Below, piece by piece: positions 51,326 to 62,627 of a stretch of 64,000 nt of DNA. Below the pieces are notes generated by a model. The model had not been told where the DNA came from, did not search any database, and worked only from the letters and a program-made list of their open reading frames with translations. The position numbers were made by a program, and so were the translations under genes. Position 1 is the stretch's first letter; the number at the start of each line of letters is the position of its first letter. Origin of the DNA: Mustelus asterias (Eukaryota); contig NW_027590818.1 in NCBI RefSeq assembly GCF_964213995.1, positions 62,001 to 126,000 of the forward strand, in the 5' to 3' direction.

Positions 51326-51672
51326 AGTTTCCGTAAGGGCCTTGTATCAGTTTGTATCACTGTGAATGATCAGCGCACAATAATACACCTCATTGTCACT
51401 CAGCTGTACATCTGCCAGGGTGAAACTGAGGAAACGATCCAATACTCGGAGTTTTGACCAGAATCGGCCTCCCACACGCTCAGCTTTCTTTGTATTTCCC
51501 TCCGAATTCCTTTTGATTAAAAATACCGACTCCTCCCCCGGATTTTGTCGGTGCCAGAGCAGATAATCGCGGCGGCTGTCTGTGGAGAATGAACAGGGCA
51601 ACACCATGCGTTCTTGTTCTAAACATGATACTGACGGTGCAGTTTGCTTTACAGTATCAGAATAACACAGTC
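51326..51672 (-). other. TCR alpha/delta V exon, open frame (51672-51365) with 23-RSS (51364-51326); nearest leader (51857-51802) defective
   Basis: DTVKQTAP...LPCSF...LLWHRQNP...DNEVYYCALII; CACAGTG-23-ACGGAAACT. The candidate leader contains TAA and is in the wrong phase. Confidence 0.85.
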
Positions 51673-53542: not shown

Positions 53543-54020
53543 ATGGGAATCCTTCTTGTTTTCACCGTGTGTGCCTATTTACCCCGTGAGTACCGATCAA
53601 ACTAACCCACATTGTGTGGATTGAACATAATGCCCCAGTCCATCTCAATTACAGACACTGTCTGGGGTTTAGCCCCGTTGTGCGGTTCGGCTCTGATGGT
53701 CCATTAAACTCTCTGTGCTTAATTTCCAGGATGTTTCAGTCAGTCAGTGACTCAAAGCCCGGCAGCGGTGACCAGGAAGGAGTGTCAGTCTCTCACCATC
53801 ACCTGTGTTTTCAATGGTGTTTACGATTTAGAAAATGGCCATTTCTTCAGACAAACCCAAACTGGGACAGAGCGGGAGCGGATCTCCAGCGGAGGGAGGT
53901 TTGTTGTGTCGGTGAATGAAGCAGAAAAGACATTTTCGCTGGAAATTCGGGACATGAGAATTGAAGACACCGCCACCTATTACTGTAAAGCTCAGCACTG
54001 GTACTACGCACATGGGACAC
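53543..54020 (+). CDS. NAR-TCR V segment (VNAR-like), leader 53543-53585, V exon 53730-54020, intact
   Basis: MGILLVFTVCAYLP|R-CFSQSVTQSPAAVTRKECQSLTITCVF...ERISSGGRFVVSVNEAEKTFSLEIRDMRIEDTATYYCKAQHWYYAHGT. CDR2 deletion and YYCKA as in VNAR; extra FR1 Cys. Confidence 0.92.
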
Positions 54021-54048
54021 CACAGTGGAAGAGAGGAGAACAAATACT
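54021..54048 (+). other. 12-bp-spacer RSS of the NAR-TCR V
   Basis: CACAGTG-GAAGAGAGGAGA-ACAAATACT; no nonamer at the 23-bp distance. Confidence 0.88.
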
Positions 54049-54379
54049 TAAATATTTCTGAACAAGCGAAGCAATAATTTCCAGGACACGGACCATAGCT
54101 TGTCGGGTTGTTGTTATTATCGTTGCAACATGATTTCATTTCGTTGTAATTTCCTCCCTTCAGTTATCTTTCTTTAACTTTTTTATTCCATTTCTACGAA
54201 GCGTCCATCTCCACTCCGTTCCTGGGCCATTTTGCCAAGAGTTCAGAGTGTCCCAAGGAACAGTTTGTTCCAATGGGAATTATAAAACTATCATACTTCA
54301 TTATTGATCTATAACCCCTGAATAATTGATAAACGCTGACTATTCGGTAATTTTTTCCCCATCAGTTTGAGGTGTCAGT

Positions 54380-54471
54380 CATTCTTGTGCTGGGCTGACT
54401 GAGAGTGCTGACACTGTGGGGAGAGTGGAGATTTACAGATGGGTCTGGGACGGTGGTGACTGTCTCAGCTG
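54380..54471 (+). other. NAR-TCR J segment (54419-54471) with 23-RSS (54380-54418)
   Basis: CATTCTTGT-23-CACTGTG, then GEWRFTDGSGTVVTVSA G|GTAAGT (IgNAR-like GxGTVVTV motif). Confidence 0.9.
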
Positions 54472-56510
54472 GTAAGTGACTCCAAATCCCCCCGTATTGC
54501 AGAATGTCCTGGTTCGTTTTCGCCGTCAGTTCATTCTTGTCGTCTGCCTCTCTTCAATCCTCTGTGACTACAATAGCAGCGTGGGGGAAGGGGGTTTCTG
54601 TGGAAGATTTTCAATTGCAGTTTTAGATTTGGGAGCAGAATAGGAAACTGGAGTCGGGTCCATATTTTGAAGCTATGACTTCTGTCCTCGTGTCAACTTT
54701 GATTCTCTCTGTGGCTCTTACGGAGGGTCATCCAGACTGGAAACGTTGACTCTATTCTGTCTCCACAGATGCTGTCAGACCTGTTGAGGTTTGCCAACAT
54801 TTTTCAGGTTTTGGTGTTGATATAAATCTTTAGCATTAATTGATAGATTCATTAATGTACGTGTGGAGAAAATGATTCAGATTAAAGAAACATTTAATAT
54901 GATGCCAGTGAGATAAAAGAAAAAGAAATTAGGAGGAATGTGGAGCGCGCTGCCACATGGAGTGGTTGCAGTCAATGGCGTAAGGAATTTTTCAGACGGC
55001 GTGAAAGATCGAGGAGGGAGAAGGACACAGTGCTCAGTGTACAAAGGTTTCGTTAGGGATCGAGTGTGAGAGGGGAGTAGGTACGTGCGCAGTGCAAGGA
55101 CAAGCGTACTGTGAGCCGACTGGCCTACTTCTGTTCTGTGGAATCTATATAATATAAAATACAGAGAGGATTCTGCCCAGAAAGCATGGGGAACAATCAA
55201 CCAATGGATGGAAGGAATTGAAAATCTCAGGCACCTTGAAAAGGCAATTTTCACAGTGAGTAACAGTGAGCAAGTCGATCGGGGAAACTGAGCATGCTGA
55301 TCTCAACTGACATTGGAGAGTGTCTGGGACAGGTTCTCGTGGTGGCAAGAAATCGCAAGCAGTACAAAGAGAACAACTCAGATTTATAAATACATTGGTA
55401 TTAACTGTAAATCATTCTAATATATAATATAAATTGTAGAATTGATGGACGAAACTGTGCAAAGAGTTGGACTGTAGTCAAAGGTTGATCTTTGACACAG
55501 ATATGCATTGTCAGTTTCGCTTAATCAGTTTCGCTGGGCGAGTATGACCGTCTTTGCCTGAATCTTGATGCGACCCAGCATATAAAACTGCAGGGTTACT
55601 CTCAGTCAATCAACTCTGGACAGCAATTGTTATAGTGAGAAGAGTGAACTTTCATATAATTTCCTCAGGTTTGTAAATCGCCAATATACACAGAAGCAGA
55701 CACTAAATATAAAACATAAAATCAGAAACCAGAGAAGGACATCACTCTGACCAAGTGGCCATTCTTTGCAGGTGCTACTGAACGTTTCCTATTTTACCTT
55801 CCTGCTCTTCAAACCCCCGGAATTCTAATCTGATTCTGTATATTTCTTCCATTTACCGTTCGAAAATGAGTGTTGAATTTGTTTCCAACACACATCTCCA
55901 AATAATCCAGATGAGCAAAATTCGCTGTGTACAAAAAAAATCATCTAAGTATCTGCCCCTCGGCTCTTTTGCCATTTTTTTTCAATTCATCCTCTGGATG
56001 TGGGTGTCCCTAATTGCCTTTGAACAGGATGGCTTGCGAAGCCCATTTTAGAGGGCATTTAAGAGTCAACCGCATTTTTGTGTATCAGGAGCCACATGTA
56101 GGCCAGACCAGATAAGGATGGCAGATTTTCTTCCCTCAAGAACATTAGTCAAACACATGTGGTTTTAACGACAATCGACAATGTTTTCATAGTCATCTTT
56201 GAATTAACATGCTTGTTTTATTGAAATCAATTCAATATTGAATTGAAATTCAAATTTCACCATCTTCCGTGGCAACATTCGTACCCGTGTCCCCAGCGTA
56301 TTACTTGGATTACTAAATCTCTGGATTAAGCAATCCAGTCATAATACCACTTTGCCGCCGTCTCCCTAATTAATTATAGTGAATAAATGTCGCACACCCT
56401 TTAATGAAACAATTACGGGAAAATGGCGAGCTATTGACGCGATTATATTTCCCTGGGCAAACTAACATGCAACGCAAGTAATGGAATCATAGAAATGCAT
56501 TATTTTATAG

Positions 56511-56825
56511 GTTCTGCAGAATCCAGTTCATCCGTGTCACAGAATCCGTCTCTCCAAACCTGTGCTGCTGACGACACCATTACTTTAAACTGTGAATATC
56601 CAGGATTTTGTCAACACACACTCTACTGGTACCGTCACTCTCCAGGACAGACCCCAAAATACCTGCTTAAGAGACACACATCAGGCGAGGCGATCAAAGA
56701 GAACGCTGCCGGGCAGAGAATTTCTGCTTCTGTCGACCCTGTCGAAAAAATCAGCTGGTTAAAGATCTCCAAGGTGCAACTGAGCGACTCCGCTGTGTAT
56801 TACTGTGCACTGAGTGGGCGCACAG
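56511..56825 (+). CDS. TRDV: Leaderless supporting TCR delta V of NAR-TCR, intact
   Basis: TTTTATAG|GT acceptor in phase with the J donor; SVSQNP...LNCEYPGFCQHTLYWYRHSP...DSAVYYCALS; CDR1 Cys; no leader exon found upstream. Confidence 0.92.
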
Positions 56826-57120
56826 CACAGTGATGCAGAACAGGGAGAGAGCCGTACAGAAACTTGAACATGGTGAGGATTACAGACAAAGTGATACAGA
56901 ACACGGAGAGAGCTGTACAAATACCTGGACCTGGTGAGGATTACAGACACAGTGATACAGAATACGGAGAGAGCTGTACAGAAACCTGAACATGGTGAGG
57001 ATTTCAGACAGAGTGATGCAGAACACGGAGAGAGATGTGCAATAACTTGTACATGGTGAGGATTACAGACACAGTGATGCAGAAGACGGGGAGAGTTATT
57101 CAGAAGCCTGAACATGGTGA
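56826..57120 (+). repeat. Tandem array of five 23-RSS units (61-bp period)
   Basis: Heptamers at 56826, 56887, 56948, 57009 and 57070, each followed by 23 bp, a nonamer and a 22-bp linker. Confidence 0.93.
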
Positions 57121-57492: not shown

Positions 57493-57806
57493 CTGTGCGC
57501 CAACTCAGTTCACAGTAATAAACAGCGGAGTCGCTCAGTTAAAGTTTGGAGATCTTTAACCGGCTGATTTTGACGGAAGAATCGATAGAAGCAGAAATCC
57601 TCCCCCCGACCCTGTTTGATTTATTCTCCTCTCCAGAAATGTGTGTCTGAAGCAGGTATTTCTGAGCCTGTCCTGGGGTCTGAGGGTACCAGTGTACTGT
57701 GTACTGACAGAGACCTGAATATTCGCAGCTTCAAATAACCGGTCACCGGCAGCTGAGGTTTGTAGAAGGGAACTTGGTGACACAGCTGGGCTGGAATCTG
57801 CAGTGT
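57493..57806 (-). pseudogene. Supporting TCR delta V pseudogene (inverted paralogue)
   Basis: CEYSGLCQYTVHWYPQTP...ISKL*LSDSAVYYCELS; acceptor CG, FR1 frameshift, TAA. Confidence 0.88.
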
Positions 57807-61702: not shown

Positions 61703-61793
61703 CGGCTGTGACAGTCACCACCGTCCCAGACCCATCTGCAATCTCCATTCGCCCCACAGTGTCAGCGTTCTCAGTCAGCCCAGCACAAGAATG
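61703..61793 (-). pseudogene. NAR-TCR J paralogue (61754-61703) with 23-RSS; splice donor mutated
   Basis: CATTCTTGT-23-CACTGTG; GRMEIADGSGTVVTVTA G|TTAAGT. Confidence 0.85.
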
Positions 61794-62126
61794 ACTGACA
61801 CCTCAAACTGCCGAGCAACCATTCCCGAAGAATCAGTGTTTCTCGATTATTCAGGGGATTTGAATCAATATGAACATTGGTTGTTTAAAAAAAACCTCAT
61901 TGGATCAAACGTTTCCTTGTGACTCTCTGAGTTCCTGGTAAAATTTCCCAGGAACAGGAGCAGAGATGCAAGATTCTTATTAACAGCGAAAAACCTTGAA
62001 GAATTATAACTGATAGGTGGAAATTACAATGAAATTAAACTAGATTGAACTGGGAATAACATCAACCCGACAAGTCAAGTTACCGAACATGGGAATTGCT
62101 GGGAATTACTGTTTTGATTGTCCTGA

Positions 62127-62627
62127 GGTTTTTGTCGATCGCTCTCCCAGTGCGGTGTCCTGTGTGAGTAGTACCAGTGCTGAACGTTACAGTAATAGGT
62201 GGCACTGTCTTCAACTCTCACATCCCGAATTTCCAGTGAAAATGTCTTTTCTGCTTTATTCACCAACACAATAAATCTCCCCCCGCTGGAGACCCGCTCC
62301 CGCTCTGTCGGGGGCTGGGTTTTTCTGAAAACAATTACCATTTTCTAAATCATAAACTCATAGAAAACACAGGTGATGGTAAGAGACTGATACTCCTTCC
62401 TGGTCAACGCTGCCAGGCTCTGTGTCACTGACTGATTGAAAGATCCTGGAAATTAAACACAGAGTTTAATGGACCATCAGAGCCGAACCAAACAAAGGGG
62501 CTAAAATCCTAGACAGTGTCTGTAATTTAGATGGACTGGGGCATCTTTATATTCAATCCACGTAATGTGGGTGAGTTTGATCGGTACTCATCAGGGTAAA
62601 CAGGGTGAAAACAAGAAGGATTCCCAT
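62127..62627 (-). pseudogene. NAR-TCR V pseudogene (leader 62627-62592, V 62445-62155, 12-RSS 62154-62127)
   Basis: Leader donor reads ATGAGT; frameshift with TAG after CDR1; FR1 Cys is Tyr; YYCNVQHWYYSHRT; CGCACTG-12-ACAAAAACC. Confidence 0.9.

Follow-up and report, generated by a model that had tools for sequence, protein, structure and literature searches.

The window, by which we mean the whole 64,000-nucleotide stretch of Mustelus asterias DNA analysed, carries an intact-looking cassette made of a leader, a NAR-type V, a 34-nt tail abutting a 12-RSS, a J with a 23-RSS and, further downstream, a supporting V-delta; a D is absent. On inspection of the sequence, all its reading frames and splice phases are mutually compatible. 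The features of this cassette and of an inverted paralogue are the following:

53543 to 53585, + strand: leader exon (MGILLVFTVCAYLP), donor GTGAGT at 53586
53730 to 53986, + strand: NAR-type V exon, taken as far as the second Cys; frame open, with an additional Cys in the a-b loop (KECQS) and the WYRK Trp replaced by F
53987 to 54008, + strand: start of the CDR3, encoded by the V (KAQHWYY); split NAR-TCR Vs have homologous tails of 22-24 nt
54009 to 54020, + strand: extra 12 nt CACATGGGACAC, read as junction plus D remnant (TGGGACA at 54013-54019)
54021 to 54048, + strand: 12-RSS, CACAGTG GAAGAGAGGAGA ACAAATACT; homologue in split cassettes, the D 3′ RSS
54049 to 54379, no strand: D-less stretch, read as the former D-J intersegment from interval alignment, tree and RSS scan
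54380 to 54418, - strand: 23-RSS of the J (CACAGTG-23-ACAAGAATG), from the RSS scan
54419 to 54471, + strand: NAR-TCR J (GEWRFTDGSGTVVTVSA), donor GTAAGT at 54472
56511 to 56825, + strand: supporting V-delta exon, putatively leaderless; CDR1 Cys, acceptor at 56511 or 56520
56826 to 57108, + strand: 23-RSS of the supporting V-delta and four more RSS-like copies, 61-bp period
61703 to 62445, - strand: V and J of an inverted paralogue, a pseudogene from this joined clade, whose own V-delta ends near 57512

NAR-TCR is described as the doubly rearranging TCR-delta of cartilaginous fish (PMC1845163, PMC12227049, PMC5931798), with an a-b loop Cys, a missing WYRK Trp and a supporting V carrying a CDR1 Cys as its marks (PMC1845163). 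The window cassette has the same plan of leader, NAR V, J and leaderless supporting V-delta: its V reads KECQS in the a-b loop and FFRQ, without the Trp, at the WYRK position, and its supporting V-delta has the CDR1 Cys (CEYPGFCQ) and a splice phase that fits the J. The best solved-structure matches of the NAR V are VNAR domains (top E 7e-19). Among named proteins the best match, at 99% identity, carries the source label Mustelus asterias. The cassette departs from the published accounts, in which the NAR domain is built by V-D-J rearrangement, in that its V and D appear pre-joined and the V bears the 12-RSS of the D. Having no free D, it lacks the parts for separate V, D and J assembly of the NAR domain, which its split siblings possess. 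Among NAR-TCR cassettes it represents a derived form. Both acceptors of the supporting V-delta, 56511 and 56520, are in frame with the J; among the paralogues read in the acceptor region, only 56520 is retained throughout. A V-to-J intron in the gene model P0002 was rejected as a model artefact, its donor being weak and its pyrimidine tract absent. As a separate observation, 23-RSS copies are stacked at a 61-bp period 3′ of both supporting V-deltas (56826-57108 on the + strand, 57492-57271 on the - strand).

The initial annotation had described an unusually long V tail followed by a 12-RSS and a D-less path to the J, and this anatomy is borne out. The tail after the second Cys, which ends at 53986, is exactly 34 nt long (AAAGCTCAGCACTGGTACTACGCACATGGGACAC), reads KAQHWYYAHGT and runs into a CACAGTG-12-ACAAATACT signal at 54021-54048. 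The 23-RSS of the J is present at 54418-54380 (CACAGTG/ACAAGAATG, nonamer with three mismatches), and between the two signals the interval 54049-54379 contains four words starting with CAC (CACGGAC, CACTCCG, CACTCTG, CACCTCA), none of them part of a scoring RSS, and no D. The 11-19 nt quoted for the tails of the other Vs in the window are correct figures, but these Vs, being of TCR alpha/delta type, are not the right standard of comparison. In split NAR-TCR Vs the tail measures 22-24 nt and the spacer 22 bp, and the true excess is about 12 nt. The 23-bp spacer ascribed to the other scorable Vs in the window holds with one exception, the V at 51364, which can be read as 12 or 23 with three mismatches each. 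The extension, the 12-bp spacer and the perfect nonamer of the inverted paralogue are confirmed, but its heptamer reads CGCACTG, without CAC, its V contains a stop and its leader donor is lost; its J donor, now TT, is lost as well. The first bases of the window J (54419-54426, GGGAGAGT) are the same as the D 3′ end of two split cassettes, L020 and L030, probably by chance.

A search of the same genome gave at least 87 matches, the best 150 of 806 candidates having been scored, and among the matches listed 61 NAR-TCR-type V loci were read. Thirty-four of the 61 are joined like the window cassette (32 plus 2 diverged) and 15 are split, with the layout V-CAC[AC]GTG-22 ... 12-D-12 ... 22/23-J and Ds of 13-19 nt. 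The remainder comprises three loci in which D and J are joined, one separate V-D join, one hybrid, one D joined to foreign DNA, three in which an insertion follows the V 22-RSS, and three relics. A DNA search with the joined interval found at least 40 places (40 of 61 candidates scored), six of which are not among the loci read. Twelve copies are near-identical (97-100% over the interval) and may include alleles or assembly duplicates; contig depth was not taken as a measure of copy number. At L035, L037 and L038 the V 22-RSS is intact, the V-D interval is broken by an apparently LINE-like insertion, and D and J were not seen in the first 1.6 kb.

The descent of the window cassette from a split one could be examined through the intervals, each taken from heptamer to heptamer, with z calculated against 200 shuffles. 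The window V-J interval aligned with the D-J interval in all eight split cassettes tested, out of the 15, at about 66% identity (z 16.5-18.4), and still did so once both RSSs were removed (z 9.9-14.0). No alignment was obtained between the window V-J interval and the V-D interval of the same eight cassettes (z -1.3 to 2.1). Because only the D-J interval is matched, the 12-RSS is that of the 3′ side of the D. The V 22-RSS, the V-D interval and the 5′ RSS of the D are all absent from the window cassette. An interval tree of 44 rows, built without L041, L042, L046 and L053 and without L039, L040 and L047 (insertion), separated the 30 joined from the 14 split-type rows with support 100/100; this tree is unrooted. 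In trees of the V side (V exon, upstream) the joined copies were not resolved as one clade and required 2-4 changes, and a single origin was neither shown nor rejected (p-AU 0.34). The proposal of the initial annotation that the V had been fused to a D, leaving the D's 3′ 12-RSS behind, is thus upheld, the 12-RSS and the interval to the J descending from the D 3′ RSS and the D-J interval, and a germline V-D fusion in the window cassette is well supported by these comparisons.

It had been pointed out from the start that V-12/23-J in every NAR-TCR family would speak for an ancestral layout; split V-D-J paralogues are in fact present in the same genome. One could still suppose that V-12/23-J is the ancestral NAR-TCR state and that the D of the split cassettes arose from a later RSS insertion into the V tail, and the sister-group position of joined and split copies in the rootless interval tree would suit such a history. 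In this genome, however, the IgNAR Vs L058 and L059 have a 22-RSS and go with Ds bearing 12-RSSs, no target-site duplication was seen at the split V and D ends, and NAR-TCR has been described as VDJ-rearranging (PMC1845163). Moreover, the V and D coding ends of split cassettes add up to at least 35 nt, against 34 nt for the joined tail. The split state is therefore favoured as ancestral, because the IgNAR Vs have the 22-RSS with 12-RSS Ds and because the joined tail is shorter than V plus D, and we consider the reverse order very improbable.

The tail itself can be divided between V and D. Split-type Vs read KAQYWYW (L020, L033), KADYWYY (L028, L030) or KAQHWYG (L021) after the Cys, in tails of 22-24 nt; since split Vs already carry such tails, the aromatic motif is V-encoded and not a product of the join. 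Here the initial annotation, which had taken the aromatic HWYY to be made by the join, has to be amended: Vs of this lineage normally end in it, split cassettes included. The D homology it had anticipated for the extension was recovered, the extra 12 nt sharing TGGGACA with a free D, that of L043 and L044 (shuffle p 0.008 over eight Ds, of modest strength). Four nucleotides, CACA, are matched by neither the V nor any extant D, and N bases, D or a heptamer remnant would all account for them; P bases are not recognisable at the joint.

Taken together, the observations make it probable that in this NAR-TCR cassette the V and the 3′ end of a D are inherited as one fused piece, likely the result of an old germline RAG joining; a single somatic VD-to-J join is predicted to complete the NAR domain. 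The RAG recombinase would have made the V-D join once, before the amplification of the clade; we infer its part as the agent. The main competitor is a RAG-independent deletion between the TGGG of the V-RSS spacer and the TGGG of the D, the CAC(A) being then a heptamer remnant, with the same one-junction outcome. It stays a rival because the extra 12 nt begin with CAC exactly at the position of the heptamer in split Vs and have ATGGG in common with the V spacer start, and because shark germline L-chain joints are described with little N addition or TdT activity and no RSS remnant (PMC2193156). The diverged copies L056 and L057 even read CACAG-ATGGG, two bases short of CACAGTG-ATGGG. Such a deletion would nevertheless require a second one of 2-4 nt inside the heptamer, the match to the D (7 nt) is longer than that to the V RSS (5 nt), and RAG-like joins at exact coding ends exist in the siblings L045 and L021. 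We hold this deletion to be unlikely, and a germline V-D joining by RAG remains our preferred account of the fusion.

Several observations bear on inheritance of the join. Its junction recurs in 34 copies that share only 68-78% identity over the interval, and a 380-nt contig from the DNA run X3 (sample S2) spans it and equals the copy L006/L008 at 10 of 10 diagnostic sites. Since both the 34 diverged copies and this contig carry it, the join is inherited and not somatic. Four sequencing runs cover the cassette introns as DNA would; a search for the junction in metagenome contigs gave 0 matches. The protein P0069 also reads across this junction and its RSS but differs in CDR1, and its best matches here are 77-80% identical, a hint that the join goes back further than a single species. 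Gene models of other sharks (67 plus 5 matches) splice V to J artificially and are blind to the difference between joined and split.

Fifteen of the 34 joined copies look intact: their leader, V frame, CAC heptamer, J and donors are all preserved and the supporting V-delta is open. The other 19 are broken. Within this clade the first Cys of L012 is replaced by Trp, and the J nonamer is weaker in L002-L004. Between two intact subclades the V-exon pN/pS is 0.25-0.33; this is no proof of current selection because the pseudogene L019 gives 0.34. A function of the joined cassette is likely.

If the cassette is used, the 12-RSS would pair in thymocytes with the 23-RSS of the NAR J, as expected from the 12/23 rule, and one somatic junction would be formed instead of two. 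In the TCR-delta layout D-delta and J-delta present 12-RSSs, which the V-D 12-RSS cannot join. The untrimmed VD-J join is out of frame, and so is the one made at the longest microhomology (GGGA); small trims are predicted to give KAQHWYYAHG(T)(G)EWRFTDGSG in frame. About 11 V-side and 7 J-side CDR3 codons would then be germline-encoded around the single junction, and the transcript would splice the J to a separately rearranged supporting V-delta-D-J-C-delta. The expected effect is a CDR3 repertoire that is narrower without being invariant and that is reached in one step, with one junction fewer and the frame of the D fixed; no feature of the sequence favours a canonical joint.

A stronger version builds on the initial annotation, which had suggested a possible semi-invariant NAR-TCR whose aromatic CDR3 is hard-wired by the join, and adds selection of this CDR3 for a conserved ligand. 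In keeping with it, intact subclades agree at 88-94% in the 34-nt tail but at only 68-70% in the interval, the clade has been amplified, P0069 reads through the same junction, and germline-joined shark Igs are reported to be favoured in neonates (PMC4279169). But WYY or WYW is encoded by the V in split cassettes, aromatic V tails are general among those shark NAR-TCR gene models whose tails were read, and the tail is equally conserved towards pseudogene copies (88-97%). The GGGA microhomology would not yield a productive frame either, and one junction plus the second V-D-J stay somatic. This version seems to us quite doubtful.

Other joins were met among the sibling loci. In L045 (G000:C110:84783-85100), a separate V-D join consists of the full V end, a C and the trimmed D TGGGACAGT, in a sequence 99.8% identical to the split L043; a contig of X3 jumps over precisely the stretch missing from L045 (1063 to 1461 on L043), weakly supported at a depth of 3.5 and with a short side of 30 letters. 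D and J are joined and the V is free in L021 (C173), L049 (C90) and L054 (C119); the D-J junction of L021 is present in run X1 at a depth of 14. Sequence and reads suggest that the L045 and L021 joins are younger inherited joins. L049 has GC-rich, N-like bases directly after the D 5′ RSS. In L048 (G000:C110, ~113,700-114,500) together with L090, the entire V-D-J interval is in inverted orientation, the V coding end being joined to the signal end of the J; the signal end of the V is fused precisely to a foreign 12-RSS. Such a structure fits a secondary recombination of the signal joint (pseudo-hybrid joint). In L029/L089 (G000:C122, ~393,150) a NAR-TCR D is joined to unrelated sequence, with a CACAGTA heptamer 18 nt on, and the upstream part is near-identical to the split L028. 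L048, L049 and L029 rather resemble somatic events that the assembly has captured. That some assembly loci look somatic, L048 with its hybrid-type and precise signal joints and L049 with its N-like bases, might lead one to see a somatic T-cell rearrangement or assembly artefact in the window cassette too, a notion hardly worth entertaining as it is refuted by the diverged copies: the same junction recurs in 34 of them, at 68-78% interval identity, and in short-read DNA contigs.

Germline-joined receptor segments are known elsewhere. In the partly germline-joined VD-J IgH clusters of sharks (PMC5192425, PMC4279169, PMC2193156), V and D are fused in the germline with split paralogues alongside, and the fusions are attributed to RAG acting in germ cells, but the window cassette is of TCR-delta type, lacks its own C region and exists in tens of copies. 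The opossum MODOVH3-1/GRAG3-1 (PMC12269197) is a VH-DH join without J, flanked by the 12-RSS of the D and reported to be used in V(D)J recombination; it is a single Ig gene in a translocon, whereas the window cassette is a multi-copy TCR unit with its own J. The supporting V of marsupial TCR-mu and the newt TRD V-J (PMC3457774, PMC12698447) likewise have a TCR variable region assembled in the germline, but are described as complete, invariant joins, that of TCR-mu concerning the supporting domain and probably retrotransposed; the window join is partial and in the N-terminal domain. For NAR-TCR itself, the great white shark gene LOC121270133 is labelled 'NARTCR V(gj)V(gi)V' in Table S1 of PMC12227049. 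If '(gj)' is read as germline-joined, the label being undefined in that table, it is suggestive as a prior hint of a germline-joined NARTCR V; it is, however, a bare label on an automatic gene model, without RSS anatomy, and may reflect a full join or model splicing. No description of a V-D-joined NAR-TCR was found in the portions of the literature covered, PMC6795676 included; Criscitiello 2006/2010, Ott 2021 and Wang & Miller 2012 lay outside this scope and may describe one. The supplement of PMC3964593 gave no match to the terms searched.

Germline RAG joining, documented for shark Ig, would extend to the T-cell repertoire through the antigen-facing domain of a TCR. A bolder proposal is that NAR-TCR cassettes are recurrent, still-active targets of germline RAG, as exemplified by the old V-D clade, the young V-D join L045 and the D-J join L021, and that the V-D clade serves a dedicated one-junction, largely germline-encoded T-cell subset, the T-cell counterpart of the neonatal germline-joined shark antibodies; we put this joint reading forward only tentatively, as it is possible but rather unlikely. 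The amplification of the V-D join to a large share of the cassettes, beside split siblings, would offer a natural comparison of the same receptor with one and with two junctions. The NAR-TCR ligand is stated to be unknown (PMC7615758), and the comparison would be useful for asking what NAR-TCR binds. The young joins, one of them 99.8% identical to a split sibling, would let germline RAG activity at a TCR locus be dated and genotyped.

Two further observations were made in the same genome. An IgNAR-like V at L063 (G000:C71:2929530), near the IgNAR Vs L058 and L059, is joined fully and in frame to a J (CRPYTMSWVIGPEHFGRGT). The convergent pair of an intact and a pseudogene cassette seen in the window (49.8-59.3 kb) recurs over several kb on 11 other contigs (L071-L081) at 91-98% identity, which reflects either segmental duplication or allelic/assembly redundancy.
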